In this document: one piece after another, positions 6,114 through 29,909 of the stretch
How the letters are laid out: each line of letters begins with the position of its first letter
Position numbering within the stretch: position 1 is the first letter of the stretch
From: an uncultured Gammaproteobacteria bacterium
Lineage (GTDB): Bacteria > Patescibacteriota > Microgenomatia > UBA8517 > JACQJR01
Reading direction: 5' to 3'
Length of the DNA stretch: 64,000 nucleotides
Assembly: GCA_964442455.1 (NCBI GenBank)
Contig: CAYTZB010000006.1
Span: 9,532 to 73,531, forward strand
Program-made: the position numbers and the translations under genes
Notes under the pieces: model-generated
The model's database searches: none
What the model saw: the letters and a program-made list of their open reading frames with translations, nothing else
Told to the model about the DNA's origin: nothing

Positions 6114-8390
6114 TTAATATTCTACTCCACCAAAAATAGTAGTGCGTGCAAATTGGTAGTGGAGAGGATATTCACTGGGGTAGGTAATAAAACAACCACC
6201 GCATCCACGAAACGCGAGATTCCCCCACACAGGATATATCCCTATCATCTCAGCAAAATCTTCATCAGTAGATTTGCCAAGCGGATAGCTCTTAATAAAC
6301 CCTTCTTGGGCAGCTATTCCTGAATCAATAAACTGTATGTATGCTCTCCCAAATCTGTTTGCATACGCGTGCCCCCCCTCATGCGCGAGGGTATAGGTCG
6401 CGTTCGTAGACCATAAAAGTCCTCGGTTATAAATTTTAATTGTTGAAGAACGTGCTTCAAATTCCCCGCCCCAACTCACATCTTCTCTACTCCGTACTAA
6501 GTGAATTATCGGTCCATTATTTTCTCCACAGAGTGCTTTAATAAATGTAGGAGCGCGCGCAAGATTAAAGATGGCTTCGGTCTCCATTGCTCTCTCATCA
6601 TCTGTCCATGGTCCCTCAAACGTAAAGCAAAAAGTGGGCGGAGAGCCAATTGTGACTGATGCTGCTCCTCTACTCGTTTCCCCTGAAAGGTTTACATCGG
6701 GAACATCGGCGGTGACGGTAACAATGTCGGAGAGGATGCTATCGATAAAGTCGGCAGTTACTTGGATAGTATAGGCGAGTGTGAACGACTCGCCGGGCTG
6801 AAGCTCCTTCGGATAGGAAGGGAGTGTCACATCCAACCCTAGGGATCCTCCGCTTTTTAAATGGGTTGTTTGATTAGTTACCGTAATATTAGTGAGTTTT
6901 TGCTCGGTTGCGGTTACTTTCACTTCAAAGGAAACCTCCCTTGGGAGATCGGTATTGGAGAGGACCGTTGGTGTGGCAGTTTTCTCAACATTAATAAATT
7001 GTGAGTTTTGTTCGGCTAAACCTAGTCCACCTTGTTCAAGGTACGCACCCTGGTGACTTATAGAGGTATTGAAGAAGGTGAGGATTACTGTTAGAAGTAT
7101 TGCAGCAACTGCAACCAACGCCACAACGGTACCTCCTGAGATTCCCACTCCCGCTGCTACTCCTCCAACCGCAGTAGTTCCACCGCCAACCCCTCCTACT
7201 CCAGCGAGTCTTCCTAAAAAACCAAAAGTGCCACGCCCAACACCTCCTAAAGCTCCGAACCCTCCACGCAGTCCTCCGCTCAGCAGTTGTTGCCCTGGAC
7301 CAACTGCCAACTGCGCTGTGGCTCTCCCGACCTGGGGGAACAAGGTTCGTCCCACATAATAGGGGAATTTCCGTGCCCAAATACTTACTTGTGAGATAAT
7401 GTTTTTGCGTCCAGAGATAAGTGTTTGTGCAACTTCTTTGGTGGCGCCAGAGACTGTAGGTTCTTTAGTAGGAGGTGGAAAGAATCGCTCAAATTTAGTA
7501 ATTTGCTGTGTTGCCCTCGAAATAACTACACGGAAAGTTTGTATGCCTTGTTCTTTTACTTCTACCTCGGGTTTTTCTGGTCTTGTCGGTGGTTCTTTTG
7601 AGATAACAACATGACTTACTTGGGTAATGGGCCCCAATTGCGCAAGAAGCGGCAAGATGCGAGGATGGCGTTCAATTTGGCGCAATACGGTTACCTGGTT
7701 GAGTAGGGCAGACACTACTGCCCGCTCACTCAAAGGGGTTGTTTTTTGAAAGCTCTCGACGGCGGCTTCCAGCGTTCCAGACGTAACCCCTATTTGTTCA
7801 AACACCAGAGCATTCGCTGTTTGTGGGGTTTTACCAAATGCTTCTTCACCTAACGCTTGTATGCTGCGCGCTGCTTGAGCGGGAAACGCTGAGACAACGC
7901 CGGAAATTCCTTTTGTAATGGGTGTTGTAGCCTGGATATAAAGCTCTGTAATTCCCTCTTCTGTTGTGGATACTGGGGGTTTCTCGGGTAAGGATGGTGT
8001 TACTCTTGCTGGTCTTGGCATTTCTGGTTGCTGCGCAACTTCGTTTACATACTGTTCTTTGAGTCGCTCTTTGGTTAGCAGTACTCGAATTTTTCTAATG
8101 GTTTCTTCTGTTTGTTCTTTTGCACGAGCACGCGCTCCCGCTACTTCTTGTTTTCGTTCTTCTAATGCTTCAACCAGTTCTTTTAAGTTCGGAGGAATAG
8201 TAAATGCGAGTTCTCCATTTGCAACTTTTTCAAGTACTTTTAATGCTTCTGTGATGTCTTCTTGGTTGGTTACTTGTGTAACAATCCAAAGGAATTCCCC
8301 CCTGGGTATTCCTTGCCATTCAAAGAGGCTCGAGTTAACTTGAAGCGCTTGTGTTCCCGCAATTAAAAACTGGGCAAGTTCTGGATTCAT
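6114..8390 (-). CDS. Bitopic membrane protein: about 400-aa cytoplasmic N-domain, Gly-rich segment, one TM, extracytoplasmic domain with HEGGH zincin-like motif
   Basis: 758 aa. TM helix GGTVVALVAVAAILLTVILTFF preceded by a Gly-rich low-complexity stretch. C-terminal HEGGHAY (HExxH) with downstream acidic residues (DEDFAE). Start overlaps the virB4 stop by 4 bp (ATGA), implying co-translation. Confidence 0.5.
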   Translation of the reverse strand: MNPELAQFLIAGTQALQVNSSLFEWQGIPRGEFLWIVTQVTNQEDITEALKVLEKVANGELAFTIPPNLKELVEALEERKQEVAGARARAKEQTEETIRKIRVLLTKERLKEQYVNEVAQQPEMPRPARVTPSLPEKPPVSTTEEGITELYIQATTPITKGISGVVSAFPAQAARSIQALGEEAFGKTPQTANALVFEQIGVTSGTLEAAVESFQKTTPLSERAVVSALLNQVTVLRQIERHPRILPLLAQLGPITQVSHVVISKEPPTRPEKPEVEVKEQGIQTFRVVISRATQQITKFERFFPPPTKEPTVSGATKEVAQTLISGRKNIISQVSIWARKFPYYVGRTLFPQVGRATAQLAVGPGQQLLSGGLRGGFGALGGVGRGTFGFLGRLAGVGGVGGGTTAVGGVAAGVGISGGTVVALVAVAAILLTVILTFFNTSISHQGAYLEQGGLGLAEQNSQFINVEKTATPTVLSNTDLPREVSFEVKVTATEQKLTNITVTNQTTHLKSGGSLGLDVTLPSYPKELQPGESFTLAYTIQVTADFIDSILSDIVTVTADVPDVNLSGETSRGAASVTIGSPPTFCFTFEGPWTDDERAMETEAIFNLARAPTFIKALCGENNGPIIHLVRSREDVSWGGEFEARSSTIKIYNRGLLWSTNATYTLAHEGGHAYANRFGRAYIQFIDSGIAAQEGFIKSYPLGKSTDEDFAEMIGIYPVWGNLAFRGCGGCFITYPSEYPLHYQFARTTIFGGVEY

Positions 8391-10912
8391 GGTTCCTCGG
8401 GTCTAGGGTTTCCGGTTTCGGTTTTTAGTTGTCGGTTTTCTGGTAAAGTTTCTGAGGGGCTTACACCTGGTACCTGATACCCTACTTGCGCAGGCAGGCC
8501 GACGCCTGATACCTGGGTTTGTGCCTGTTCTCTTGCTAAAACCTCTTCAGGTTTGGTTGTTACAAGTCCGTGTTCTTTATCTGAAGCGACGACTCGCATT
8601 GCGACATGGTGTGGCCCGGCAAAGAAAATTCCCTCCCCAATGTCTGAAGCAAGTATCAGTTGTTTTTCTCCTTCTGATAGGTGGAATACTTCGCCTACTC
8701 GGTCAAGCGCGCTCGGTGACTGTTTCATGAGGATACGAAGTGCTGCATTATTGACAATTGCGCGACCGATATCTTGAGAGAGAAAGTCTTCAACATCTTG
8801 AGTGATGGTTGAGAGTCCCAACCAATACTTTCTCGCGCGCTTGGCAATTGACCACAAAAAGAGGGCTGAGTCGGGGAAGCGCATGAGATGCCATGCCTCA
8901 TCCACTATAAGCAGTCGCTTTTTAATATCGCTCCTTATCCTTGTCCAAATAAAGTCAAGAACGATAAACATTGCAATGGGTCGGAGCGCTTCCTCTAAAT
9001 CACGAACTGAGAAAACAGTGAAGGGGCTTGTGATATCAACCGTGGTTGGTTGGTCAAATATACCCATAAAACTTCCCTTCACAAACTTCTCAATTCGGGC
9101 AGCAAGATTTGCGGCTTCCGGCTCTTCCATGCCAATGAATGCTTTATAAAGATCTTCCATAAGAGGAGGTTCTTTCGTGTGAGTTTCTGGGTCTGGGGTA
9201 ATGCCCTTTGCTTTATAGGTAAGTATCAGCGCTCGGTCTAATAGTGCTTCCTCGGTAGGAGCGAGCGCGCCCATAATGACCTTAAAGAGAGAGTGGAGTG
9301 AAAGCAGTTTGAGTGCCAGTTGATTTTCTCCAGGAGTTTGTACTGTTTGTGCCCCGAGCGCACTCATATCAAAGGGATTAATTTTACTTGGTGAACCAAA
9401 AGAGAAAGAAATAAACTGTCCGCCAACTGCGCCGCAGAGTGCTTTGTATTCGCTTTCTGGGTCAATAATAATAATTTCCGCTCCCAACATTAAGTAGCGC
9501 AGTGCTTCCAATTTAATAAAGTAGGATTTCCCACTCCCTGAAGTGCCAAAAATTGTAGCGTTGGGGTTCTCAAGCTTGAACCTGTCGAAGATAATGAGCG
9601 AGCCGTTATCCTCGTTAATACCATACATCACTCCTTCTTCTTGGGAAAGTTCTGCGGAGGTGAAGGGAAAGGTGGTGGCAAGAGAGCTTGTATCCATATT
9701 GCGGGTAATAGTAAGGGGATCAAACCCCAAGGGTAAGGTTGCAACGAGTCCGTCTTCTTGAGAAAGGCTTGCGGTCCTGACAGTGATAAGAAGAGCCCCA
9801 AGTGTTGATTGGACTTGTTTGGTAACGTTTTCGAGTTCTTCCAACGACGAGGCGGGAATGGTGATATAGAAGGCGAACTGAAAAAAACGTTCGGCGCCTT
9901 TCACTAATTGCTCCTGAAGTGAAAGTGCGTCTTCAAGTTTTGCTTGCGTGGAAGGATTTACGACGCGACCTCGTTGAACATCGGTTGAGATTTCCGCTTC
10001 CATCTCCGCAATTTTGCGCCGCAGGTCATCTAACACCGATTTCCCCTCAACAGGATAGATAAAGAGGGAAAGTGTTAGGGTATGGTCGAAATTGATAATG
10101 GGGTCAAGCCACCCCGCTGAGACAAAGCGGGGGTAACCGGAAACAAACAGTGTCCGATATAAGGTTCCATCTACAGTGAGGTGAGAGAAGTCGACCTCCA
10201 TTTGCGCAGGTGCGATAATGTCAATGACGCGTTCTCCCGCCGGAACGAGTGTTTCTACCTCGGATAACGTGGTTACTTTATATCTCGAAAGGAGTTTGTC
10301 TCGCTCGGCAGGATTATAAAGTTCAAGAAAAAGATCAATGAGTTCGTTGGTCGTCAATTGCTTAAGCTTTAAACCCAACCGTCCTGCTTGTCGAAGTATG
10401 TGGTCCCGTTTAGGATAGAGTGTTGTTTTCGCTTTTTTTATGATGTACGAGCGTGAATAGGGAAGTTGCTTTGACTTGCGTATGATGCCGCTCACCGCCT
10501 GTTTTACTCCTAACTCAAGCGACGAGAAGGGAATGACAATAAAGAATCGTTTGGACAGCACTCCCTTTTTTTTCACTGTTGAGGTGACAAATGCCTCATA
10601 TTCTTGCATCATCGCCAATATTCGAGGGTTTGTTTGCCGCGTGCGCGCTTCTTCTAGAAATGCAAGATAGCGCCCTATATCCTTTTTCTCGGAGCGCACC
10701 AGAATTTGTGCAGAAAATGAGAGAGAGTTTAGGAAAGCCGCGTACGCAAAGAGAATTGCTTCCTGCTCGCGTTCTGAAAGTAGAGAGAAGTTAAGCGAGG
10801 AGGACGCGAGAACGAGTGCCGCACCGCCATTTTTGAGAAGCACAATATCCTCAACAATGTCAGCAATAGGGAGGTGGTCTTGGGTTGTGGCAGTAATAGG
10901 TTGTATTTGCAT
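8387..10912 (-). CDS. virB4: Type IV secretion ATPase VirB4/TrbE/TraC family
   Basis: 841 aa. Walker A GTSGSGKSYF, Walker B LLIVDEAW. Size and domain order are typical of VirB4. Confidence 0.85.
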   Translation of the reverse strand: MQIQPITATTQDHLPIADIVEDIVLLKNGGAALVLASSSLNFSLLSEREQEAILFAYAAFLNSLSFSAQILVRSEKKDIGRYLAFLEEARTRQTNPRILAMMQEYEAFVTSTVKKKGVLSKRFFIVIPFSSLELGVKQAVSGIIRKSKQLPYSRSYIIKKAKTTLYPKRDHILRQAGRLGLKLKQLTTNELIDLFLELYNPAERDKLLSRYKVTTLSEVETLVPAGERVIDIIAPAQMEVDFSHLTVDGTLYRTLFVSGYPRFVSAGWLDPIINFDHTLTLSLFIYPVEGKSVLDDLRRKIAEMEAEISTDVQRGRVVNPSTQAKLEDALSLQEQLVKGAERFFQFAFYITIPASSLEELENVTKQVQSTLGALLITVRTASLSQEDGLVATLPLGFDPLTITRNMDTSSLATTFPFTSAELSQEEGVMYGINEDNGSLIIFDRFKLENPNATIFGTSGSGKSYFIKLEALRYLMLGAEIIIIDPESEYKALCGAVGGQFISFSFGSPSKINPFDMSALGAQTVQTPGENQLALKLLSLHSLFKVIMGALAPTEEALLDRALILTYKAKGITPDPETHTKEPPLMEDLYKAFIGMEEPEAANLAARIEKFVKGSFMGIFDQPTTVDITSPFTVFSVRDLEEALRPIAMFIVLDFIWTRIRSDIKKRLLIVDEAWHLMRFPDSALFLWSIAKRARKYWLGLSTITQDVEDFLSQDIGRAIVNNAALRILMKQSPSALDRVGEVFHLSEGEKQLILASDIGEGIFFAGPHHVAMRVVASDKEHGLVTTKPEEVLAREQAQTQVSGVGLPAQVGYQVPGVSPSETLPENRQLKTETGNPRPEEP

Positions 10913-13745: not shown

Positions 13746-16151
13746 ATGTCCGAGCCTGCCCAACCAGAAAATCCTATGAGTAACCCAGAAAGACCATTGG
13801 AGGGTGTTACTCCTCATGAGCAAGCAGTAGTTAAGCGTGCTGAAGAGGAAGCGCGCTCTTCTTCTGTTGAGGCAGTACGCCAAGCGGGTTATGTTGCCCC
13901 ACAAGTTTCTTCGCAAGAACAAACGGTAAGTACTCTTACCGGTCAAATTCCCGAAACAGCAAAAGTGATAAAAGAGGTAAAAGCGCAACTCGTAGGCGAT
14001 TTGTTAGACAGAGAACCAATAGGTGTATATCAAGAATTAGGAATAAGAACCGAAGGTGCTGCTATTCAGGAAATGGTTCCTCCTCAAGAAAGATTGCGGA
14101 TGGAGAGAGAGCGACAGGTTAAATACACGGAAGGTTCTTGGATTGCAGAAATGGTTAGAACTTCTGAAGACCCAGACACTATTCGTGCATTTACTAGAAA
14201 GTTTATGGCAGAGGTTGAACAATCATTGACAACTTCAAATCCCGGAATACATCGTTTAGAACAAGTCCGTAATTATCTTATTGATCGTGCTGATATGTTT
14301 AGAGCGGCTTTGAATCCGCAGGAATCTTGGGCTAAAGATATTAATCGGGTTACTGGTTTACTTGAGAAGATGGTTGAGAGAAGAGTGACGGTGACTAAAG
14401 CTCAAGAAGTTGCGGGAGGATTGGTGGAAGTAGAGTTAAACGAAGAAGAAAGAGATAGATTGGAATTGATCGTTCAAAAATTATTGGGGATGCGAAAATT
14501 AGGAATAGTTCCTCCAAAGAGAGAAGGTAAAACAAAGTATATAGCAGTTTTAGATCAACAAGCAGTATTAAAGCTTAGAAGAGATGATGAGGGTAGGGGG
14601 TTATTAGTGAGAGAAGAAGTAATACCAGCGACACTTACAAGAGGAAAACTTGAACGGCTTGTAATGGTCTTTGAGGAGATGAGAACAGAGCTATTGACAA
14701 GAGAACGCATCTTTGTCGCACGTTATCTTCGTAGAGTTCGAGAGGGTTTGTTGGATCAACTCACGAAGTTATTTGAAAGGCCAGAGTATGCTTGGCTTAA
14801 AACTGAAGACTTTAGGGCTATTTTTGAAGCAGGCCCACTTAAAGAAGGAGAAAGACCGTTCGGAGAAAAAATTGATATGGCAATGAGATTGTATACTCTT
14901 ATCGGAATTGGTGGAGGTCCAGAAAGAGATGAAGCTCAAAGAAAAACTGCTGCCGAGCAGAGAATTCAAATAGAGGCTACGAAACCATGGCTAAGAAAGT
15001 GGCTTGAACAAAATATTGGAGATACACAAAAACAGGCCCAGTTTTTAGGCAAATTAGCTGAATATGCCGCAAGAAATATTTTCTGCGATTCCCCTCCATA
15101 TGAGGAAGATACAGGTCGGGAGGAATGGATAAAGGAAGTAAGGGAATGGGTTGTTAGTGTAATTAATGGAGATAAAGGTGATAGAGAAGACACAAAGGCA
15201 GCAGAGGATTTAGGATGGGGTATTTTCTATATGTTTGGTTTTGCATCATATTTTGATAATAGAAGAGAAGGAGAAACGCCAAATGGATGGCCATCTTCGG
15301 ATGATACCATGAAGTTAATGCATCCAGAGGCTTATCGTGAACGGGAAAAAGGGGAAGGGCAATCACATAATTATGGACCACACGCAACTTTTGGTAAGTA
15401 TGATGAAATGGCAAGAGAGCATGGTGCCTTGAATGGTAAATTTATGATTATGGTTCCATTTCTTCATTGGGCATTGCCAACAAGAGATACTAGACTTGTT
15501 AGTCCAGATAACCCAAAGGGGGATATTAAAGTTAAGGACATGAAGACGTTTTGGGAGAGATGGTGGAATGATGGTACGGAAATGAAAGATTTACCATGGA
15601 GAACTATTCGAGAATATTCATGGTTTTATTACAATCTTGCTCTTTACTTTGCAGGAGGATACGGGAGAGAAGAAGAAGACAGGAGCCTTTGGGGATTGAT
15701 TAATAGAGACTTTTGGGAAAGAAGTAAGTTAATCAATATTCATACTTTGCAGGATATTAACAGAACTGTTGAGTATGCAGTTGGCGGTTGGTCATTGCAT
15801 CAGGGAGAGATTCAAAAATGGCTTCAATCACTTCCAGGTAATAAGAGGCGAGGAGTTGAAAATTTATCAGCACGTCAATTTACAGAACAATTTGTTGAAC
15901 CAGTTCGAAAAAGAATCCGCGAGCTCATATTAGTCGGAGCACTGACAAGTGCGTATCATGGTGGAGGAAGATGGGCGTGGACTGAGTGGGGAGAGTGGCC
16001 AATGGGAGGGGCGAGTTTAGAGGCGGGTGTGAAGGCAAGCGACGTTCGTAAGGAAATTCGAAGGATTCTTGAAGAAGCTGGTTTTAGTAAAGAGTGGGAT
16101 ACGGTGAAGAAGGAAACTGAGGCGTTTCTAAAATCCCGAAGGGTATTATAA
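13746..16151 (+). CDS. Large orphan soluble protein (801 aa), Trp-rich C-terminal half, no TM or signal peptide
   Basis: Long intact ORF inside the T4SS-like locus. No motif I could assign. Divergent from the 12909-13670 gene. Confidence 0.5.
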   Translation: MSEPAQPENPMSNPERPLEGVTPHEQAVVKRAEEEARSSSVEAVRQAGYVAPQVSSQEQTVSTLTGQIPETAKVIKEVKAQLVGDLLDREPIGVYQELGIRTEGAAIQEMVPPQERLRMERERQVKYTEGSWIAEMVRTSEDPDTIRAFTRKFMAEVEQSLTTSNPGIHRLEQVRNYLIDRADMFRAALNPQESWAKDINRVTGLLEKMVERRVTVTKAQEVAGGLVEVELNEEERDRLELIVQKLLGMRKLGIVPPKREGKTKYIAVLDQQAVLKLRRDDEGRGLLVREEVIPATLTRGKLERLVMVFEEMRTELLTRERIFVARYLRRVREGLLDQLTKLFERPEYAWLKTEDFRAIFEAGPLKEGERPFGEKIDMAMRLYTLIGIGGGPERDEAQRKTAAEQRIQIEATKPWLRKWLEQNIGDTQKQAQFLGKLAEYAARNIFCDSPPYEEDTGREEWIKEVREWVVSVINGDKGDREDTKAAEDLGWGIFYMFGFASYFDNRREGETPNGWPSSDDTMKLMHPEAYREREKGEGQSHNYGPHATFGKYDEMAREHGALNGKFMIMVPFLHWALPTRDTRLVSPDNPKGDIKVKDMKTFWERWWNDGTEMKDLPWRTIREYSWFYYNLALYFAGGYGREEEDRSLWGLINRDFWERSKLINIHTLQDINRTVEYAVGGWSLHQGEIQKWLQSLPGNKRRGVENLSARQFTEQFVEPVRKRIRELILVGALTSAYHGGGRWAWTEWGEWPMGGASLEAGVKASDVRKEIRRILEEAGFSKEWDTVKKETEAFLKSRRVL

Positions 16152-17625: not shown

Positions 17626-19200
17626 TCAAGGGCTATTGTAATTTTCCCAAACGAATTCGCAATAAGTTCTATTACCTAATCTTGGGAAGCTGGTTTGGCA
17701 TTCTCCATAATAAGATTCAGCAGCTCTGGATACTTCCTCTTGAGTCCACTCTGCACCTATTGCTCCTGAGCTTGCCCCTAGCTTTTTACTTGCAGCATAT
17801 ACAGAGTCCTTTACATTACAAACATTTGATGTTCTATTTTCTCCTGCTGCCTCATTTACTGCATTGGCATAAGAAGACCAGACATCAGGCATGGGTTGGC
17901 CAGTATAATTTCCACAGCTTGCTGCAATACCATCATTGAGGAACTGCATTGGCCCTCGTGCTCCACAGCCGTTGGATTCACAATTGATTGGATCTTGACC
18001 TCCAGGTACAGAGTAGGTGGATATTTGGCCGTCAGAAAAACTCCACATGTGTCCTCCCTCAATCCACGCAACTGCTGCCAAAACACCCGCAGGAACATTA
18101 AAGGCGACAGAAGCTTGTCTTAATTGGGCTTCAAGTTGGGGAGATAGAGGATTACCGGTTAATTTAAAAATGCCTGTTCCTCCACTGGGGGGTAGAGGGG
18201 GTGTTTCGGGGATTGGGCGGAGAGGTTGTAATTCGGCAGGGTAAAGAGATTGTTGGAGGAGGACATAGCCCTTTCTCGCTCCAGCTACACCCAAGAAATT
18301 GAGTTCTTTTGTGGTTGAGGAACCATCGACAGCATAGGGAGTTTCTTCTTGTTCCCCTTCGCCCTTAGGGCAAATTTCTTCCGGACAAAAACTACGCAAA
18401 AATCCGGTTTCTTCTTTTGAGGCCTGCGAAAGAAATGCCCGCTCTCCCGGTAGAAATTTTTGTGGTTTAACCGTTACCGCAATTGTCGCTGATGCATTGA
18501 GAAGTTTACTCCACAGTCCGGTAAAAAAATCGACAATATTTCCTATAACTCCTGCCAGCGAGATGGTTGTGGTGTTTTGGGAAGGCGCGGGAACTATTTG
18601 TTTGCCCACTTGGCCCGTCAATTCCGGACAGTCAGGTAGTTGTTTATTCCCCTCCTCGTCCAGAGGAAGCGTTGGTTGAGGTGCGCTAAAATTGGTGCGC
18701 GAGGAGAAACCCGGAACTGCACTGGCTTGATTAAGCTTTGTCGCTCCCAAAAGTTTTGTCCAATAAGAGGGTGTCCTGACATCACTTGCGCCTTTCCCCT
18801 CTATTCTACCTGTCACTGAAGCACCTCCTGCATCAATATCGCAGACAGGATGAAATACTTTTCCGGAGAGTGTTGCTTCTGGGAGAGATAGGTTTTTAAG
18901 AAGTCCTTCGGGAAGGAGGTTGGGGAGGGCGTTCGTACTTACTTGCATTTCGCGAGTGAGGTTGGGAAATTTAAATTCATTTTGCACGACTCCTACATCA
19001 ATACCCTGCCCGCTTACATCTACTGCCCCACCAGTTTTGGTGACTTCCCGCGTCACATCAATGTCTTCTCCATAAGAGGGGTGTACACTGGTGTCGAGTG
19101 GTTCGGGAGTCGGAGTGGGCTCTTGGGCAAAGGCAGGAGCGGGATAAACAATAAACAATAAACAATAAACAAAAAATAGCGATAAGGGCAGGCGTAGCAT
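17626..19200 (-). CDS. Secreted protein with C-terminal lytic transglycosylase (SLT/VirB1-like) domain
   Basis: Signal peptide MLRLPLSLFFVYCLLFIVYPAPAFA. C-terminal AWIEGGHMW (catalytic Glu region), GARGPMQF (GxxGxMQ) and SYANAVNEAAG (AYNxG-like) motifs. Confidence 0.55.
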   Translation of the reverse strand: MLRLPLSLFFVYCLLFIVYPAPAFAQEPTPTPEPLDTSVHPSYGEDIDVTREVTKTGGAVDVSGQGIDVGVVQNEFKFPNLTREMQVSTNALPNLLPEGLLKNLSLPEATLSGKVFHPVCDIDAGGASVTGRIEGKGASDVRTPSYWTKLLGATKLNQASAVPGFSSRTNFSAPQPTLPLDEEGNKQLPDCPELTGQVGKQIVPAPSQNTTTISLAGVIGNIVDFFTGLWSKLLNASATIAVTVKPQKFLPGERAFLSQASKEETGFLRSFCPEEICPKGEGEQEETPYAVDGSSTTKELNFLGVAGARKGYVLLQQSLYPAELQPLRPIPETPPLPPSGGTGIFKLTGNPLSPQLEAQLRQASVAFNVPAGVLAAVAWIEGGHMWSFSDGQISTYSVPGGQDPINCESNGCGARGPMQFLNDGIAASCGNYTGQPMPDVWSSYANAVNEAAGENRTSNVCNVKDSVYAASKKLGASSGAIGAEWTQEEVSRAAESYYGECQTSFPRLGNRTYCEFVWENYNSP

Positions 19201-19203: not shown

Positions 19204-19608
19204 CTATTGAGTTACTCGAAATATTGTTACATCAACGCCGGTAAAGACGCTCACAAAACGCAGAATTAAAAACGCGGCGACAACAACGACAAAACCAATG
19301 AGCGCATAAGTTAAGGTTTGACGGGCTCCCTGGACTGCCTGTTGGTCGCCGCCGGCAGTCAAGTATTTAAATCCTCCAATAACAAGTATGACAAACAGTG
19401 CAATTCCCGCGGCCGCAAGGGAAACTGCAACAATATTAAAGAAAATAACTTCTAACCCTTTTAGCGTAGCAACGCCATCAGAAACAGCACCCGGAACATC
19501 TTCAAATTTTTTGGTTTGCGCAAGAACCGGCGAAGCCCCCAATAGACCAATAGCCAAATAACCCAATAGCCAAATAATTCTCATAGCTTCAGTGTAGCAC
19601 GAGTTCAT
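19204..19608 (-). CDS. VirB2/TrbC-like pilin paralog 1
   Basis: Signal/TM plus a second TM hairpin. Conserved GGFKYLTAGGDQQAVQGAR motif shared with six neighbours. Confidence 0.65.
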   Translation of the reverse strand: MNSCYTEAMRIIWLLGYLAIGLLGASPVLAQTKKFEDVPGAVSDGVATLKGLEVIFFNIVAVSLAAAGIALFVILVIGGFKYLTAGGDQQAVQGARQTLTYALIGFVVVVAAFLILRFVSVFTGVDVTIFRVTQ

Positions 19609-19643
19609 TTATTGAAGCAAGGGATGTTCAGCCAGTCGGAGAG

Positions 19644-20036
19644 TTAGGGTTGGAATTTTGGAATAGTGAGCTGGAGGATGTCAATACCAAAGAGTACGTT
19701 AACAAGCTGAATAATTGCCCAAGCCGCAAAGACAATTACAAGTCCGACAAGTGCTGCAGTAATTTGGCTTCTTGCTCCTTCAGTTGCTGTTTTATCGCCA
19801 CCGGACAAAATCCAGCGGATACCACCAATAACCAAGATAAAAAAGAATATCAGTGCCGCAATGACTAGGACTAAACGAATGAGGCCTGAAACAATGCTTG
19901 GGACAGTTAAGTTACCCAATGCTTGGAACTGTCCGCCTGGTTTGATGTTAATCACGTCTCCCTGTGCCAAAACCGGGAGTGCGGTTAATAAAAGAGCCCC
20001 ACCGCTTGCTGCAATTCCCTGGATAATTCGCTTCAT
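19644..20036 (-). CDS. VirB2/TrbC-like pilin paralog 2
   Basis: IGGIRWILSGGDKTATEGARSQIT motif. Two hydrophobic segments. Confidence 0.65.
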   Translation of the reverse strand: MKRIIQGIAASGGALLLTALPVLAQGDVINIKPGGQFQALGNLTVPSIVSGLIRLVLVIAALIFFFILVIGGIRWILSGGDKTATEGARSQITAALVGLVIVFAAWAIIQLVNVLFGIDILQLTIPKFQP

Positions 20037-20044
20037 TTGTATAA

Positions 20045-20380
20045 TTATCTCAATATTAATTTCCCAATGTCAAGAGTGAGAATGTTTACGCCAAAAAGTC
20101 CCTCAACAAGGGTTGCAAGTGCAAAAGCTGCAAAGACTATAAAAAGACCAATCAGGGCATTGGTTATGCGGGAACGAGCCGCTTCTACTTGTGTTTTGTC
20201 CCCTCCGGCTGTCATCCAGGAGATTCCACCAAGAAGTAAAACAAATAAAAACACTACGCCTGCAACTACAAGCACAAGAGTAATAAGCATTGGCAAAAAT
20301 TGTGCAGCAAATGCTTGGCCTGTTAAGTCTTTTATTCTCGGAGAAAGTATTGGATTTTCTATTACTTGTGCTAACTTCAT
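20045..20380 (-). CDS. VirB2/TrbC-like pilin paralog 3
   Basis: LLGGISWMTAGGDKTQVEAARSRIT. Start overlaps the next paralog's stop (ATGA). Confidence 0.65.
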   Translation of the reverse strand: MKLAQVIENPILSPRIKDLTGQAFAAQFLPMLITLVLVVAGVVFLFVLLLGGISWMTAGGDKTQVEAARSRITNALIGLFIVFAAFALATLVEGLFGVNILTLDIGKLILR

Positions 20381-20739
20381 GGCGAAATTAAAGGTAGAAC
20401 CTTTTCGATATTGAATATTGTTTCTATTCCAAGAAGCGCAGTTATAAGTCGGATGAAAAAGATTGCCAGTGCCACAATTGCAAGTCCAACAACAGCACTG
20501 GTTAATTTTCCTCTCGCTCCCTCTAACTTTGTTTTATCTCCTCCCGCAGCAAGCCACTGAAAACCAGCAAGTAGAACTTGGAAGGTAAACCATATACCTG
20601 CAACAATAGTCATAAAACCGATAATATTAGAAATTAACCGTGCAAATGTTGCAGGAGCATTTGTCGGGTCTCCAAGTGGACCAATTCCCCTAAATTCTTT
20701 ACCCAGAGGAATTTCTCTAAGTTGTGCTAAAAAAATCAT
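20377..20739 (-). CDS. VirB2/TrbC-like pilin paralog 4
   Basis: LAGFQWLAAGGDKTKLEGARGKLT. Confidence 0.65.
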   Translation of the reverse strand: MIFLAQLREIPLGKEFRGIGPLGDPTNAPATFARLISNIIGFMTIVAGIWFTFQVLLAGFQWLAAGGDKTKLEGARGKLTSAVVGLAIVALAIFFIRLITALLGIETIFNIEKVLPLISP

Positions 20740-20749
20740 AATAATATAT

Positions 20750-21088
20750 TCATTGTGGGCCGAAAATTCTTGGTTTTATAAGTATGGTTGGATCTTTAAA
20801 TATAATTTGGCCAAAGATAGCAGCTAGTACAAAAGCCCCTGCGATAAACAAAAGCCCAATCAGAGATTGCCAAATTCGTGCCCACGCTTTTTGCATGTTT
20901 TCTGGATTTCCGCCGGCAGAAATAAATTGAAAACCGGCAATAACAATATTAAAAAGCGCATACACCCCACCCACAACAATCAAAAGAAGGAGTATTGCGT
21001 TTAAGAATGTTACTAGCCCACCGCCAGTTAGTGGGCCGTAACGTTCAACTCCTGGTGGTGGTGCAACTTTACCAAAAATTTGCAGCAT
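20750..21088 (-). CDS. VirB2/TrbC-like pilin paralog 5 (divergent motif)
   Basis: IAGFQFISAGGNPENMQKAWARIW. Stop shares a base with the start of the next gene. Confidence 0.6.
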   Translation of the reverse strand: MLQIFGKVAPPPGVERYGPLTGGGLVTFLNAILLLLIVVGGVYALFNIVIAGFQFISAGGNPENMQKAWARIWQSLIGLLFIAGAFVLAAIFGQIIFKDPTILIKPRIFGPQ

Positions 21089-21405
21089 TATAATCCTCTT
21101 CCTCCTCCGAGAATATTTATTCCCGTTATTGCTTCAACTGCTTGAATTATCCAGTAACTGGCGAAAATAATCAAGAAACCTATAATTCCCGCAGTAATTG
21201 CCTGCCTTCCCTGGCCTGTTTTTTGCTGATCTCCACTACCTGCACCAATAATTATTCCCAATCCTCCAAAGACAATTAAAAAGAGAACTACAACTCCAGC
21301 AATAATATAGGCATTTGAAAGAATGACAGAAACGAGAGAACCAAAGTCCGCAAAAGGAGTTTTAAATACTTCTTCGCCAATTTTTACTTGGGCTATTTCT
21401 CTCAT
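21088..21405 (-). CDS. VirB2/TrbC-like pilin paralog 6 (start placed at the internal Met MREIAQ...)
   Basis: The ORF-track version (to 21498) overlaps the upstream paralog by 97 bp. The Met at 21405 gives an ATGA overlap with 21402-21761. Motif GIIIGAGSGDQQKTGQGRQAIT. Confidence 0.55.
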   Translation of the reverse strand: MREIAQVKIGEEVFKTPFADFGSLVSVILSNAYIIAGVVVLFLIVFGGLGIIIGAGSGDQQKTGQGRQAITAGIIGFLIIFASYWIIQAVEAITGINILGGGRGL

Positions 21406-21761
21406 TCTTCTCCCACGGAGGATGGTGGTCCTCCAAATTGAAATATATCTTGGATTTCCTTTATGCCGAATGCTACCCCTACCAGTTGTACGAGCCAATA
21501 TGCAACGAAGATAATTACAAATCCGACAATTGCGTTGGTAATTTTAGCTCGTGCCTCTTTCAGTACTCCCGGATCGCCTCCTGAAGTCATGAGTTGAAAT
21601 CCACCATAGAGGAGATAGAGGAGGAGCGCAAGACCCGCGATGACGAAAATATATTGGGTGGCAAGGAAAAGTACATCTCCTACTCCACCAGTAAGAGGGA
21701 AGCGAAATCCCGGTAGGGCATCTTGCAATTGGTTGAAATCAATAGCTTGTGCAAGCTGCAT
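21402..21761 (-). CDS. VirB2/TrbC-like pilin paralog 7
   Basis: LYGGFQLMTSGGDPGVLKEARAKIT. Confidence 0.65.
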   Translation of the reverse strand: MQLAQAIDFNQLQDALPGFRFPLTGGVGDVLFLATQYIFVIAGLALLLYLLYGGFQLMTSGGDPGVLKEARAKITNAIVGFVIIFVAYWLVQLVGVAFGIKEIQDIFQFGGPPSSVGEE

Positions 21762-21764
21762 ACG

Positions 21765-22820
21765 TTAGCCCCCAAATCCTGGTAGTTGTAAAATATCTAC
21801 CCCTATTAATCTTAACAAAAAGACAGAGAAAATGAGAAACAATAGACCACCAATTGCAGCGGTTAGCTGTTCCCGTCCCGCTTTTAGGCGTTCAGGATTG
21901 CCCGCTGAGGTCATAATTTGAAACCCGGACCACAGGATTAAAAGAAATGCAATTCCTCCCCCAATCCCTATTGCCCATCCCAAAAACCATTTTACGAATT
22001 CGGTGGTGTTCTCTACCGGGATACATCCGAACGCAGTGTAAATTCCCCTAGTCCCATTTGGACAGGCGGTAATTTGTGGTCCCCTTCCTGGCTCTCCTAT
22101 TGGACCTGACCCCGGTTGAATTCTTGGAGTGCCGGGTGGTCCTACCTTAAGTGGTATAATGCCGCATTCTTGGTATCTTTCAACATCTCTTATATCGTAT
22201 CCAGGGAGCGGAGCTCTTACATTTAATCCTACCCATATTTGGTAATTATCACTTGCAGGGGTAATTTTCCCAATAGTCACACTGAAGTTTCCACTATTAT
22301 CCGGTCTTGCGGCAAATATTCTCGTTTGCGGTCCTTCAAGTACCACCACATTGTTTGCGTTCACCGGTACACCTGTTCCGCTCACTGCGATATCAGTAGA
22401 AGTGTCTATTTCGTTTGGACTTATACTCAAGGTACACACACTCGTTCTACTCACAGTATAGGTATTTTGACACTCGAGACCACGCGGACCATGCAAGCTT
22501 ATCTTATGGGTACCCGTGGCAAATACTTCCCTATTTTTGAATGTGTATTCAATAGGTCCCCCGTTTGAGGTAATCTTGGGAGACCAGATATTGGTAGGAT
22601 GGAGAGGATTGTTTGGGATATCAACCTCAATTTGGTATCGTTCACCTGTATTGGTTGGCCCCATTCTGAACGTTACTTCGTCGTGTGTAGTTAAGAGTGG
22701 CTTTGGCTCGTACTCGAAAGTGGGACAGAGGGAAATTTGAGCATTAGCTAAATTTATTTTTGGGAGAACCAATGCAAAAATTCCTAACAAAAAAAGAGCA
22801 GAGAGGAAAGGTCTTTTCAT
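21765..22820 (-). CDS. Secreted 351-aa protein: N-terminal beta-rich domain fused to a C-terminal VirB2-like pilin module (candidate tip/minor pilin)
   Basis: Signal peptide. C-terminal FLLILWSGFQIMTSAGNPERLKAGREQLTAAIGGLLFLIF matches the motif of the seven pilins. First gene of the pilin operon. Confidence 0.55.
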   Translation of the reverse strand: MKRPFLSALFLLGIFALVLPKINLANAQISLCPTFEYEPKPLLTTHDEVTFRMGPTNTGERYQIEVDIPNNPLHPTNIWSPKITSNGGPIEYTFKNREVFATGTHKISLHGPRGLECQNTYTVSRTSVCTLSISPNEIDTSTDIAVSGTGVPVNANNVVVLEGPQTRIFAARPDNSGNFSVTIGKITPASDNYQIWVGLNVRAPLPGYDIRDVERYQECGIIPLKVGPPGTPRIQPGSGPIGEPGRGPQITACPNGTRGIYTAFGCIPVENTTEFVKWFLGWAIGIGGGIAFLLILWSGFQIMTSAGNPERLKAGREQLTAAIGGLLFLIFSVFLLRLIGVDILQLPGFGG

Positions 22821-22930: not shown

Positions 22931-24607
22931 ATGAGTTTGCGCCACTTAATTTTTTTGTTTTTTATTCCGCTTACAATAGTTTTTGCTAGTAGCGCAGTCG
23001 CTTCGCATTGTGGCAGTGATTTGCAGTGCCAGATTGATGAGATTCAAAAAGAAATTGATACACTAAAACCTGCTCATGAACGGAATGAACAAGAGTTAGT
23101 AGATTTACGAAAACAGATAGCGAGTATAAAGGCGCGCATTAACGGGATTAATAGCGAACTTTTACAACTTGAGAAAAGTATTGCACAACGGGAAGAGGAT
23201 TTGGGAGTACAGCAGGAATTACTAGAAGTCCGGGTACGCGCGCTCTACATCAGAAGTCGGCTCTATTCGCCTCTCATGGTATTCCTTGCCTCAACTTCTG
23301 CTTCTCAATTTACAAGAGAGCTGGCGCTTAGGCAACAGGTAACCAATGAGGATAGACGTATTATCGATGAACTCTCAGCAGAACTTACAAAACTCAATGA
23401 GGACAAAAAGACACTCCAAACCTCGCGGGCAGGTTTGGCAAGGCTCCAGCAGCAACTTGATGAGCGGGCGGGATTTTTGGCAAAAGAAGTAGAAAAGGTA
23501 GAGAGTTATCTTTCAAGTTTAACGGCAAAACAGCAAGAACTCGAAGCCTTAAAAGCCGGAGGATTTCAAACTTCAGTCGGTGATACCCCTCCCACACTTG
23601 AACCATGCTCCGGTCCACCCGGCACATCTGCCTTCTGTGATCCAGGTTTTAAACCAGCTTTTGGCGCGTTTTCATTTGGCGCTCCCCACAGAACAGGCAT
23701 GAGCCAATTTGGTGCTTACGGAAGGAGCAAACAAGGGCAGTCGGCAGAGCAAATACTTGCTGCGTACTATCAGGGAGCAAGCTTGCAAAAAGACTATCCG
23801 TCTCCCGACACGATTGGTGTTAATGGATACGGAAGGATTCCTTTTGAAGAGAACTACCTTTTGGGAATTTATGAGGTTCCTGAAAAGTGGGGAGATAATG
23901 GGGGTTTTGAGGCGCTTAAAGCTCAGGCAATTGCAGCGCGAAGTTTTGCGCTTGCAGTTACGAGTGGCGGTGCTGGCTCAATTTGTACGACTGAAGCTTG
24001 TCAAGTCTACAAACCCCAGCTCAAGAGTGGGAAGTGGGCAGAAGCAGTTCGGGCAACGCGAGGATGGGTATTGATCCGCGACGGTGCGCCAGCCAAGGCA
24101 TACTATGCCTCAACATCAGGTGGCTATACAATTTCACAGTGGGGATGGGGTGGTATTAAAGATACCGCAGGTGAGTGGCCAGACACTGCCTATGAGAAGA
24201 GTTCTGGCTCACCTTGGTTTTACAAAGGATGGTACAGAACACGGAGTGGTGCCACATGCGGAAGGAGCAATCCATGGCTTACGTCAGAAGAAATGGCTGA
24301 TATTCTGAACGCGTGGCACGTACTTTACAAAGGAGGTGGTGATGTCTCTCGGATTAGTCCTGTGACGACAAGTTGTTTCTCGGGAAATCCCTACTCTGTT
24401 TCTGAACTTGCCGGAATTGGCGGATACACGAGTGCGTCTTCGGCAGCGGTTATCTACAGCAATAGTGGTTCAACGCAATCCGTGAGTTTTTCAACCAATA
24501 AAGGAACATTAACTTTGTCTGGGGAAGAGTTTAAAAAAGCATTTAACCTGCGCGCCCCGGGTTATATAGGTCTTAAAAGTAGCTTGTTTAATATAGTTAA
24601 GCTATAA
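22931..24607 (+). CDS. Coiled-coil plus SpoIID/LytB-domain protein (peptidoglycan lytic transglycosylase/amidase enhancer)
   Basis: N-terminal TM and long coiled coil. SpoIID signature motifs LKAQAIAARSFA, TTEACQVY and YYASTSGGYT. Confidence 0.65.
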   Translation: MSLRHLIFLFFIPLTIVFASSAVASHCGSDLQCQIDEIQKEIDTLKPAHERNEQELVDLRKQIASIKARINGINSELLQLEKSIAQREEDLGVQQELLEVRVRALYIRSRLYSPLMVFLASTSASQFTRELALRQQVTNEDRRIIDELSAELTKLNEDKKTLQTSRAGLARLQQQLDERAGFLAKEVEKVESYLSSLTAKQQELEALKAGGFQTSVGDTPPTLEPCSGPPGTSAFCDPGFKPAFGAFSFGAPHRTGMSQFGAYGRSKQGQSAEQILAAYYQGASLQKDYPSPDTIGVNGYGRIPFEENYLLGIYEVPEKWGDNGGFEALKAQAIAARSFALAVTSGGAGSICTTEACQVYKPQLKSGKWAEAVRATRGWVLIRDGAPAKAYYASTSGGYTISQWGWGGIKDTAGEWPDTAYEKSSGSPWFYKGWYRTRSGATCGRSNPWLTSEEMADILNAWHVLYKGGGDVSRISPVTTSCFSGNPYSVSELAGIGGYTSASSAAVIYSNSGSTQSVSFSTNKGTLTLSGEEFKKAFNLRAPGYIGLKSSLFNIVKL

Positions 24608-27123: not shown

Positions 27124-27564
27124 ATGAAGATTATAAATCGTCGAGCGCCTTATGAGTATCAACTACAAGACCGTATTGAGGCGGGTATTTCGCTCTTAGG
27201 TAGCGAAGTAAAATCAATTAAAACAGGAAGAGCAGACCTTTCAGCAAGTATTGTTCGTATGAAAGATGGACAGGCATATTTGTTAAATGCAAATATTCCA
27301 CCTTATCAAGGTGGAGTGCCACAAGATTATAATCCCACCAGAACCCGCAAACTTCTCTTGAATAAAAATGAATTAATCTTTTTAGAAACCAAGGTAAAGC
27401 AGCAGAAATTGACAATTGTGCCTACAAAAGTGTATAGTAAAGGGCAACTAATTAAGGTCGAGATAGCTTTAGCAAAGCCAAAGCGTAAGTTCGAAAAACG
27501 CGAAGCAAAGAGAAGAAAAGATGTTGAAAGAGAAATAGAGCGAGAGTTAAAACCAAGGGGATGA
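27124..27564 (+). CDS. smpB: SsrA-binding protein SmpB
   Basis: Conserved SmpB core (GSEVKSI, TRTRKLLLNKNEL) and a basic C-terminal tail. Followed by tmRNA. Confidence 0.9.
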   Translation: MKIINRRAPYEYQLQDRIEAGISLLGSEVKSIKTGRADLSASIVRMKDGQAYLLNANIPPYQGGVPQDYNPTRTRKLLLNKNELIFLETKVKQQKLTIVPTKVYSKGQLIKVEIALAKPKRKFEKREAKRRKDVEREIERELKPRG

Positions 27565-27914
27565 TAGGTTTCGACGGGAAGCACCTTAACACCCAGGCAA
27601 GCTGAGTTTGGCTCACACTCACTAAACATAAGCCAAAACAAAAACGTCAACTATCCAAGTGGACGTCTAGCGTACGCAACAGCGTAAGCGCTAGCATCTG
27701 TATTGCGTTCTCCTGCGGTGCATTATGGGTGTAAAATAGCAGGATGCTCTTTAACTCTGGTTGATCAGCAGAGGTAAAGAAAAGACCTTCTGGTCTTACC
27801 CTAAAGATTAGTGTCAGCTCTCAAACTTTTGGGGGACACAAACTAACTGACTAAGCTTGTAATACTTGGGTGCTTAGGACTTTTCGGATCCGGGTTCAAC
27901 TCCCGGCATCTCCA
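27557..27914 (+). ncRNA. ssrA: tmRNA (SsrA), CCA not encoded
   Basis: 5' GGGGATGATAGGTTTCGACGGG matches the tmRNA 5' consensus. 3' GGATCCGGGTTCAACTCCCGGCATCTCCA is the T-arm plus acceptor, complementary to the 5' GGGGATG. Candidate tag ORF ...NYPSGRLAYATA ends at TAA 27685-27687. Begins 8 nt before the smpB stop. Confidence 0.8.
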
Positions 27915-27924
27915 CTTAAAATTA

Positions 27925-28672: not shown

Positions 28673-28758
28673 GGTGGGTTGGCTGAGTGGTCTAAAGCGA
28701 CGGTTTGCTAAACCGTTCTCTCGAAAGGGAGGCACAGGTTCGAATCCTGTACCCACCG
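28673..28758 (+). tRNA. tRNA-Ser(GCT)
   Basis: Cloverleaf with long variable arm. Anticodon loop TTGCTAA. T-loop GGTTCGAATCC. Acceptor GGTGGGT/ACCCACC with discriminator G. Confidence 0.8.
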
Positions 28759-28885
28759 CAGAAAACGAAGTTTTTGAGGATGGGGCAGGATGAGAATTTA
28801 TTCGACATCAAACCTTTAGGGCTTGATGATGAGCGAAGCGAATAATCCTGTACCCACCGCCTTCGGCAAGCGGAGTAGTAAACTT

Positions 28886-28969
28886 GGAGGGTTGGCCGAG
28901 TGGTTTAAGGCGCGAGTTTCGAAAACCCGTGGGAGCAATCCCTCACAGGTTCGAATCCTGTACCCTCCG
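28886..28969 (+). tRNA. tRNA-Ser(CGA)
   Basis: Near-duplicate of the 29739 gene. Anticodon loop TTCGAAA, with one A-C mismatch in the anticodon stem. Long variable arm. Confidence 0.7.
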
Positions 28970-28970
28970 C

Positions 28971-29516
28971 ATGGAGCAACAATCTGCCCAACAGCAAGAG
29001 GGGTTTGTTTCGAGTGAAGAAAGAAGCACTTTAATAAAAGAAGAGACTTTGTTTTCTTGGAAGGCACCGGTCAGGCCTTTTAAAGCAAGAGGTCGCCAAT
29101 TTTTCTCAACGGTTGCCTTAGTGGCGGCACTTCTTTCCATTATTGGGTTTGTGCTTGAGGGATTAATGGTGGTGTTTCTGGTCTGGGCTGTGGTATTTCT
29201 AGTATTTGTCTTGTTCTCTGTACCACCGGAAGAGATAGAGTACGCGATTACGAATAAAAACATTGTAATAGCAGGTAAGAGATATCCCCTGCAGGAAGTG
29301 AGCCGATTTTGGATAAGTGAGCGGTGGGGTCATACACTCTTGGTATTTGAAACGCCGCTTCGTTTTCCCGGCAGACTTGAGCTGGTGTTGGTTGGAATTG
29401 ACAAGGAGCAAGTGAAACAAAAGTTAGAAGAGAGAGTGCAGTATGAGGAAGAAGCACCAGGGTTTGCCGACAAGGCAGCCGGGTGGTTATCAAAACGGTT
29501 GTCATTAAACGAGTAA
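28971..29516 (+). CDS. Membrane protein (two TM plus PH-like C-domain), start immediately after the tRNA
   Basis: The ORF-track start (28884) lies inside the tRNA. The first Met after the tRNA (MEQQSAQQ) is at 28971. Central hydrophobic hairpin. Confidence 0.45.
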   Translation: MEQQSAQQQEGFVSSEERSTLIKEETLFSWKAPVRPFKARGRQFFSTVALVAALLSIIGFVLEGLMVVFLVWAVVFLVFVLFSVPPEEIEYAITNKNIVIAGKRYPLQEVSRFWISERWGHTLLVFETPLRFPGRLELVLVGIDKEQVKQKLEERVQYEEEAPGFADKAAGWLSKRLSLNE

Positions 29517-29528
29517 ATTTGCGCCCAT

Positions 29529-29625: not shown

Positions 29626-29644
29626 GGACGCTTCGCTATCACTT

Positions 29645-29717: not shown

Positions 29718-29738
29718 CAAAGGAGGAAGTATAAGTAG

Positions 29739-29822: not shown

Positions 29823-29828
29823 CAGTTT

Positions 29829-29900: not shown

Positions 29901-29909
29901 CAGGTATAT

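Follow-up and report, generated by a model that had tools for sequence, protein, structure and literature searches.

The present study concerns a 64,000-nucleotide stretch of DNA (hereafter the window; contig CAYTZB010000006.1, positions 9,532 to 73,531 of the forward strand) and, within it, a gene for a 758-amino-acid (aa) membrane protein that adjoins virB4 in a type IV secretion system (T4SS) cluster and carries a HEGGH motif near its C-terminus. Our results suggest that this protein is a dedicated accessory subunit of a Microgenomates-type, Gram-positive-like T4SS, in which a membrane-anchored gluzincin, displayed on the outside, would fill the slot of an envelope-remodelling hydrolase. 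We put the probability of this reading, which draws on sequence comparison, a structural model and analogy, at roughly 0.55.

Results

A first-pass annotation of the window had described at 6114-8390 an open reading frame (ORF) for 758 aa whose start overlaps the stop of virB4 (ATGA), with one transmembrane helix and the sequence HEGGHAY followed by acidic residues, and all of these were found. The ORF is real and lies on the minus strand, which that annotation had not specified; the plus-strand reading of 6114-8390 was rejected, as its frame is full of stops. The ATG (8390-8388) overlaps the TGA of virB4 by 4 nt (ccATGAat on the minus strand), and a Shine-Dalgarno sequence, GAGGA, is located 5 nt 5' of it. 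The gene for a 191-aa protein follows after a 1-nt spacer, so that the three genes, beginning with virB4, are tightly packed. HEGGHAY corresponds to residues 670-676 and the acidic motif EDFAE to residues 710-714, the hydrophobic helix is single and strong, and the identity of the VirB4 neighbor was borne out by its NCBIfam and Pfam matches (Table 1). Two orthologues (P0001 and P0002) are 62-66% identical to the 758-aa protein, and the synteny is preserved.

Residues 585-758 were used as the query of an exhaustive HMMER search, which yielded at least 224 representative clusters (50% identity) at E<=1e-3, and 113 at E<=1e-10. Among the best 150 of the 224 matches, the domain is at or near the C-terminus in nearly all, and most of these proteins are about 500-1300 aa long. 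A word-index homology search returned two close orthologues for the full protein and none for the C-terminal domain or for a 60-sequence alignment of it; set against the 224 HMMER relatives, this null result reflects a limit of the index and not an absence of relatives. In an alignment of 140 homologues, the putative catalytic residues are invariant or nearly so (H670 in 139, E671 in 140, H674 in 139, Y702 in 139, E710 in 139 and E714 in 140), and G673, W595, C621, H744 and F712 are conserved in more than 90%. One HExxH is expected by chance in about 2% of proteins of this length, as estimated from residue frequencies; HEGGH is not a chance occurrence, because it is kept in 139 of the 140 homologues. 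The conservation of the motif in orthologs, including that of a third zinc ligand, had been named as a point to be checked, and it holds for both candidate Glu residues and the Tyr. In the sequence Y-x6-E-F-F-A-E of anthrax lethal factor (LF) and PPEP, the first Glu is a zinc ligand and the Tyr is catalytic. By alignment to PPEP-1 and LF, from which the choice of E710 over E714 was made, E710 would be the third zinc ligand of the 758-aa protein, E714 the His-orienting acid and Y702 the catalytic Tyr.

An AlphaFold2 (AF2) model of residues 578-758 was made on A2, the 60-sequence version of the 140-homologue alignment, which also served for the profile searches; it has a predicted local distance difference test (pLDDT) value of 94.8 and a predicted template modelling (pTM) score of 0.91. 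In model numbering, a four-stranded sheet with helices (strands 12-15, 52-56, 65-68 and 73-76) precedes the catalytic helices, of which helix 84-102 bears HExxH and helix 131-141 bears E710 and E714. When the model was compared with the PDB by Foldseek, LF and PPEP-2 were matched with a probability of 0.99-1.0 and query template modelling scores (TMq) of 0.44-0.50 and 0.52-0.54, respectively; further neighbors were M1 aminopeptidases, thermolysin, IrrE/PprI, Wss1 and selecase, and nearly all of the 50 listed PDB neighbors have the zincin fold. A structural search of BFVD matched phage zincins. The zincin fold suspected for the C-terminal residues is thus backed by a confident model, by the zincin layout of that model and by the top structural neighbors, all of which are zincins, and we take the predicted fold of the domain to be that of a gluzincin.

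Searched against PDB sequences, the A2 profile matched 9urd_A (E 8.6e-4), PPEP-1/Zmp1 (E about 0.06) and the LF fragment 2l0r (E 0.15), and HExxH, the Tyr and the ExxxE helix align with 9urd (Y..REDFVE) and PPEP-1 (Y..EFFAE). A phmmer search of the PDB with the whole 758-aa protein gave only noise from a coiled-coil region. No Pfam or NCBIfam model covers the family of the C-terminal domain. Over the EDFAE region there are weak matches below the cut-offs (Pfam Peptidase_Mx1, 14 vs 25.6 bits; NCBIfam TIGR04549, 17.1 vs 75), 19 of 60 family members have merely sub-threshold matches to TIGR04549/Peptidase_Mx1, and Pfam ATLF (M34) does not appear in the list of the 25 families that the 60 members hit most often. 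By score, the domain is not M34, Mx1 or TIGR04549; on profile and model evidence, it forms an uncurated gluzincin family of its own, to which proteins of the LF/PPEP kind are the nearest apparent relatives.

Scanning one genome per species gave 18 loci with the zincin domain, and further loci were taken from metagenome contigs. All informatively named loci belong to the Microgenomates group (Curtiss-, Blackburn-, Beckwith-, Gottesman- and Woesebacteria, and Microgenomatus); the other record titles are 'uncultured Gammaproteobacteria/Pseudomonadales' labels of metagenome-assembled genomes or 'Patescibacteria group'. T4SS genes flank the zincin gene in 18/18 assessable loci, and virB3/virB4 is at most two genes away in 17 of these, so that the co-occurrence with virB4 in related genomes, another point raised in the first-pass annotation, is near-universal. 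Three gene orders were observed. In 12 loci, the order is PrgI, in some cases a TrsD-like piece, VirB4, the zincin gene (HExGH) and the 191-aa homologue, followed by dnaN/dnaA; in five loci, it is HExGH, the 191-aa homologue, PrgI, the TrsD-like piece and VirB4, followed by dnaA. In the remaining locus (L025/L026), nine pilin genes and a 367-aa gene precede HExGH and the 191-aa homologue, with VirB6 further on; this locus is in a non-origin context and has no virB4 within 10 kb. The pair retains its T4SS neighbors when the order relative to dnaA shifts; it is therefore linked to the T4SS rather than to the origin. A start overlapping or abutting virB4 recurs in L004, L005, L009, L012, L015 and L016. 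Judged by gene order, the 758-aa gene is a fixed part of the T4SS cluster in one Patescibacteria group.

Between the membrane and the zincin domain, residues 466-551 match Pfam DUF7507 (immunoglobulin (Ig)-like) just below the cut-off (E 4.7e-5, 23.8 bits vs 27). The Ig-like region was matched in 101 of 151 family proteins, the module of transmembrane helix, Ig-like domain and zincin is common to about two-thirds of the family, and the helix directly precedes the Ig-like domain in nearly all members. The N-terminal region, residues 1-360, has no Pfam match and is detectable in only 6 of the 151 proteins. A Kyte-Doolittle scan found no N-terminal signal peptide in the 758-aa protein, and since it is lacking, residues 1-360 would be cytoplasmic. 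The best evidence that the zincin faces outward is that several short family members consist of an N-terminal signal anchor and the outside module only, for example P0035 (transmembrane helix at 16-34; 52-kb contig). Furthermore, the conservation of C621 (136/140) and C588 (113/140) in the outside domain fits an extracytoplasmic location. Of the bitopic protein with a cytoplasmic N-domain and an outside zincin that had been proposed at first, the transmembrane helix stands as found; we infer the N-in/C-out topology from the architecture of the homologues and the absent signal peptide, and the outward location of the zincin head is supported by the same comparison.

The Gly-rich segment before the helix had been called flexible. 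Its composition is as claimed; however, it is not a loosely constrained linker, because the block of residues 361-445 is 85-87% identical to the orthologues (synonymous divergence, dS, 0.14) where the N-terminal regions are just 46% identical. In relatives, several Gly-zipper-like hydrophobic segments occur at the position of the Gly-rich stretch, and one relative gives a weak Gly-zipper match; the stretch is probably membrane-associated.

Compared with the loci L001 and L002, the N-terminal 360 codons have a dS of 1.6-1.8 and a nonsynonymous divergence (dN) of 0.48, whereas the flanking genes (virB4, dnaA, dnaN, prgI and the 191-aa gene) have a dS of 0.17-0.36. The Ig-like part is divergent from L001 (dS 1.17) but not from L002 (0.32). 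This dS pattern points beyond fast protein evolution alone to recombination with divergent alleles, and it suggests that the 758-aa gene is a recombination mosaic. The dN/dS of the outside domains is about 0.1-0.2, and by this measure they are under purifying selection.

A homologue of the 191-aa gene, which the first-pass annotation had not mentioned, adjoins the zincin gene in 22/22 loci with downstream DNA (L001-L011, L013-L019, L024, L025, L027 and L028), being on the opposite strand in L015 and L016. Its predicted outside domain has invariant G69, G149, W165, F167 and F175, and profile searches found no significant Pfam or PDB relative of the protein. A BamE-like identity was considered and not confirmed: the hint was weak (4/15 members, E>=0.034), and hhalign against an E. 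coli BamE sequence gave a probability of 0.7%. The gene occupies the slot of the VirB8-like PrgL in pCF10, and the protein could equally be an inhibitor.

Genomic context

The window resembles the origin region of a Patescibacteria (candidate phyla radiation, CPR) genome. One flank holds jag, yidC, rnpA, dnaA and dnaN, of which dnaA and dnaN are 0-3 kb from the T4SS cluster. The dnaN gene (+) ends at 5536 and the convergent 191-aa gene (-) at 5537; with no intergenic base between them, there is no room for terminators between the convergent units. On the minus strand, the T4SS genes come in the order 191-aa gene, 758-aa gene, virB4 and PrgI/VirB3-like gene, and then, after three unrelated genes, the VirB6-like gene, the gene of a 524-aa exported protein and the pilin genes (Table 1). 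The cluster shows the features of an MPF-FATA-like (mating-pair formation) system of Patescibacteria, namely a monoderm-type VirB4, PrgI/VirB3 (PrgI just below the cut-off), a pilin array and a position near dnaA, and it matches the description of Patescibacteria T4SSs in PMC12102498.

By its family matches, the VirB4 is of the Gram-positive (monoderm) type. It is one 841-aa protein in the window, L001 and L002. In nearly all more distant relatives examined (L004-L016, L018 and L028) it is divided into two ORFs, of which the TrsD-like one has 215-390 aa (572 aa in L028) and the ATPase 530-670 aa; comparison of these loci indicates a fusion or fission inside the group. TrsD homologues are the most abundant accessory component according to PMC12102498. 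The 358-aa PrgI/VirB3-like protein is long, with a Pro-rich middle and a C-terminal CarboxypepD_reg-like beta-sandwich match below the cut-off (E 6.6e-5), and from these matches it is an extended VirB3. The 473-aa VirB6-like protein matches no VirB6 family model in Pfam or NCBIfam. Its identity to the L001 protein is 46% over the matched first 223 residues, where adjacent core genes have about 90-97%; by this comparison, it is another hypervariable T4SS part.

The C-terminal part of the 524-aa exported protein has lytic-transglycosylase-like motifs as judged by eye (AWIEGG, GARGPMQF); searches of Pfam, NCBIfam and PDB gave no match, and we do not claim it as a lytic transglycosylase. A protein with Pfam SLT_3 is present in the cluster of the relative L028. 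Of the pilin ORFs, only the 351-aa protein matches Pfam T4SS_pilin (30 bits vs cut-off 26.6), with the pilin domain at its C-terminus. The seven small ORFs were named pilins from their two-helix sequence, and those of 134 and 130 aa match genes of L025 that Pfam annotates as pilins. Classic signal peptides that end in VLAQ are present in two of the pilin ORFs; several others begin with M-x-LAQ and overlap the preceding gene, and these appear from their sequences to be without a signal peptide.

Three further features were recorded. An 801-aa ORF (13746-16151, +), which is divergently placed, has a counterpart in L001 (2015-4138) and no match in Pfam or NCBIfam; its first 82 residues are conserved in L001 (91%), and the remainder is unrelated. 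As in polymorphic effectors, the N-terminus is conserved and the body variable, which makes the ORF a candidate T4SS substrate. A 558-aa exported protein (22931-24607, +), divergent beside the pilin array, has a PcsB-like coiled coil and a SpoIID (lytic transglycosylase) domain (E 5e-13). In an Rfam scan, a tmRNA gene was found at 27557-27917 (+, 133.9 bits) and seven tRNA genes within 28673-35779.

Table 1. Features of the 758-aa gene and of the T4SS cluster in the window
Feature	Position	Strand	Basis
Whole gene of the 758-aa HExGH membrane protein (stop included)	6114..8390	minus	ORF list and translation
N-terminal region, residues 1-360, E/Q/P/T-rich, fast-diverging, predicted cytoplasmic	7311..8390	minus	Without signal peptide or hydrophobic segment
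Gly-rich juxtamembrane segment, residues 361-421, 41% Gly	7128..7310	minus	Composition
Transmembrane helix, residues 422-440 (VVALVAVAAILLTVILTFF)	7071..7127	minus	Kyte-Doolittle maximum 2.98
Putative Ig-like beta-sandwich spacer, residues about 460-584	6639..7013	minus	Sub-threshold Pfam DUF7507
Predicted C-terminal gluzincin-type metallopeptidase domain, residues 585-758	6117..6638	minus	HMMER, AF2, Foldseek, profile search
HEGGH (H670, E671, H674), predicted two zinc ligands and catalytic base	6369..6383	minus	Conservation; model helix 84-102
Y702-x7-E710-D-F-A-E714	6249..6287	minus	Conservation; alignment to PPEP-1 and 9urd
Acidic motif EDFAE, residues 710-714	6249-6263	minus	Sequence
191-aa partner: N-terminal transmembrane anchor, Pro-rich linker, outside domain of about 140 aa	5537..6112	minus	Start 1 nt past the HExGH stop
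VirB4 ATPase, 841 aa, with fused TrsD-like N-terminal part	8387..10912	minus	NCBIfam conju_CD1110 414.5 bits (cut-off 325); Pfam P-loop_TraG E 3.7e-29
PrgI/VirB3-like protein, 358 aa	10926..12002	minus	Pfam PrgI E 1.2e-5, 26.1 bits vs cut-off 27; syntenic in related loci
VirB6-like polytopic protein, 473 aa	16169-17590	minus	Syntenic homologues beside T4SS genes in related loci
524-aa exported protein	17626-19200	minus	ORF list
VirB2-like pilin ORFs (seven in tandem) and a 351-aa protein with a pilin domain	19204-22820	minus	ORF list; Pfam T4SS_pilin

Discussion

We favor a role of the 758-aa protein in envelope remodelling because it is a positional counterpart of a hydrolase with that task, being a large protein that is translated with VirB4 and has a predicted zinc peptidase at its outside C-terminus. 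In the mechanism that we propose, the N-terminal region would tether the protein to the VirB4 platform, and the Ig-like spacer and the zincin head would stand outside the membrane. There, Y702 would stabilize the transition state, as in LF and PPEP, and the zincin might cut peptide bonds of the envelope beside the machine, thereby permitting the assembly of the channel or pilus, or reach to the host. The bond may be in the peptidoglycan stem or in a surface protein or pilin, and the 191-aa partner may regulate or hold the zincin protein. The 758-aa protein would thus take the envelope-hydrolase slot that belongs to PrgK, TraG and CwlT in Gram-positive systems and to an M15-like peptidase protein in Saccharibacteria; by this analogy, it probably cuts envelope components so that the T4SS can work. 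PMC12102498 describes homologues of peptidases and lysozyme encoded directly downstream of virB4 as essential for epibiotic growth in S. epibionticum. The first-pass annotation had regarded a peptidase at this position as non-canonical, which is correct only in part: monoderm-type T4SSs normally have a cell-wall hydrolase in the slot, Saccharibacteria have a large protein with a C-terminal M15-like Zn-peptidase there, and it is the zincin head that is new.

Several points weigh against this proposal. The similarity to solved zincins is weak (best Foldseek E 0.013, template modelling score about 0.5). To our knowledge, no characterized relative of this fold type cuts peptidoglycan, and LF and PPEP cut proteins; because the characterized relatives do so, the peptidoglycan stem is no likelier a target than a protein (S-layer or other surface proteins of the organism itself, pilins, or the host surface). 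Furthermore, no peptidoglycan hydrolase domain (SLT/lysozyme, CHAP/NlpC-P60, M23 or M15) was found with Pfam and NCBIfam in this protein and 10 full-length relatives. The N-terminal region is the most variable part of the protein, which is odd for a docking domain, and we infer both its cytoplasmic location and its contact with VirB4.

A broader version of the proposal, which we consider possible though doubtful, is that a surface-displayed LF-like zinc protease family and its 190-aa partner form a lineage-specific core of the Microgenomates T4SS, in which they would replace the peptidoglycan hydrolase and act on proteins (the organism's own S-layer or pilins, or the host surface), with a recombining N-terminus coupled to the VirB4 motor. 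If this is true, surface proteolysis would be an integral, possibly ATPase-coupled, step of the engagement between epibiont and host.

An alternative, which we regard as rather unlikely, is that the zincin is a maturation protease of pilins or surface proteins; it would trim the N- or C-terminal tails of VirB2-like pilins or, like PPEP, release or activate a pilus-associated adhesin. The nearest folds, LF and PPEP, are those of proteases with protein substrates, the cluster in the window has eight pilin-domain genes, and in L025/L026 the gene pair comes directly after the nine-gene pilin array, in the region where virB4 is missing. However, most loci couple the zincin gene to virB4 and not to pilins, and no conserved cleavage motif was established in the pilins. 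Known T4SS pilin processing, moreover, uses signal-peptidase-type enzymes.

Still less likely is a host-directed weapon. In this case, the zincin would attack the surface of the host bacterium at the contact zone, possibly once released from its anchor, and the 191-aa neighbor would protect the producer as an immunity or inhibitor protein. The position of the catalytic domain at the very end of the protein, with the gene of a small, membrane-anchored and exported neighbor directly after it in all cases (22/22), does recall toxin-immunity pairs. Phage proteins and polymorphic toxins also contain zincin domains of similar fold, and the mosaic nature of the gene would suit such a function. However, the conservation is reversed in comparison with polymorphic toxins, since the C-terminal domain is the conserved part (224 clusters) and the N-terminus the variable one. 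Moreover, the protein is membrane-anchored, there is one zincin gene copy per locus examined, and the 191-aa partner has no detectable similarity to known inhibitors. Of the three roles named in the first-pass annotation, the delivered effector is therefore placed last, as the protein is anchored in the membrane, conserved in its C-terminal domain and variable at its N-terminus, and the processing protease and the cell-wall peptidase remain.

That the protein is a catalytically inert structural T4SS subunit, or a gene near the origin that is linked to virB4 by accident, is very improbable: the cluster is beside dnaA/dnaN in most genomes, and PMC12102498 gives dnaA proximity as a general feature of such T4SS clusters, but the catalytic residues are almost without exception retained in the 140 homologues, and the T4SS linkage persists with a changed order relative to dnaA and at a locus away from dnaA.

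The Patescibacteria T4SS lacks a relaxase and a coupling protein, and in the one lineage where genetics is available, epibiotic growth cannot proceed without it (PMC10633639 and PMC12102498). For the gene beside virB4 in Microgenomatia, the available part of the latter, a survey from 2025, reports no homologue. Our literature search found no T4SS-linked metalloprotease in Microgenomates and nothing relevant on the TIGR04549/Mx1 family. A T4SS-linked exported hydrolase is an idea already known; the gluzincin in this role, its domain family and the fixed 191-aa partner are undescribed in Pfam, NCBIfam and the searchable literature. A conserved putative zinc protease with intact catalytic residues, together with a fixed partner, would provide two concrete, biochemically tractable T4SS components, the soluble ectodomains of which can be made without culturing the organism. 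The hydrolase slot of a monoderm T4SS could then hold a quite different class of enzyme. The present analysis also delineates a domain family, missing from both Pfam and NCBIfam, that comprises at least 224 clusters at 50% identity.

Relation to characterized systems

The best structural neighbors, LF and PPEP-1/2 (MEROPS M34), share with the 758-aa protein the signature HExxH ... Y-x6/7-E-x-F-A-E and an extracytoplasmic location. The identity is 11-15%, with template modelling scores of about 0.44-0.54, and Y702 is 8 residues ahead of E710, where the spacing in M34 is 7, a difference of one residue. Furthermore, the M34 enzymes are soluble secreted proteases without a T4SS link. Among sequence profiles, the best match is to TIGR04549/Peptidase_Mx1, the 'substrate import-associated zinc metallohydrolase lipoprotein' of Bacteroidota (PDB 9urd). 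Its members are likewise surface-exposed; however, they are lipoproteins of SusC/D-type loci without T4SS context, and the scores are far under the cut-offs. As for polymorphic toxins, the small co-inherited downstream gene is present (22/22), and the conserved N-terminus with a variable C-terminal toxin is absent.

A parallel in gene position is offered by PrgK (pCF10), TraG (pIP501) and CwlT (ICEBs1), which occupy the envelope-hydrolase slot within the virB4 cluster, as the 758-aa protein does. These proteins are membrane-anchored, encoded beside or near virB4, and composed of a glycosidase and a peptidase domain. The order prgI-prgJ(virB4)-prgK-prgL of pCF10 presumably parallels that of the PrgI-like, VirB4, HExGH and 191-aa genes in the window. 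Like VirB1/PrgK/CwlT-type proteins, the 758-aa protein is encoded in a T4SS cluster beside virB4 and is membrane-anchored. However, PrgK, TraG and CwlT have lytic transglycosylase, CHAP/NlpC-P60 or M23 domains, and the 758-aa protein has a predicted HExxH gluzincin and an N-terminal region that is unrelated in sequence. Proteins of the PrgK/TraG/CwlT type are characterized as two-domain peptidoglycan-degrading enzymes in PMC12102498.

The protein SEML1_0007 of Ca. Southlakia epibionticum (Saccharibacteria) adjoins VirB4 and has a C-terminal Hedgehog/DD-peptidase domain according to Table S2 of PMC10633639. Its gene is followed by that of a lysozyme/Cys-peptidase protein, and both are essential for epibiotic growth according to PMC12102498. 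Compared by description, SEML1_0007 has a Hedgehog/DD-peptidase (M15B/M23-like) fold and not that of a zincin. However, like the 758-aa protein, it is large, lies immediately downstream of VirB4 and ends in a domain of the zinc-peptidase type, and it belongs to a T4SS cluster that is essential for epibiotic growth.

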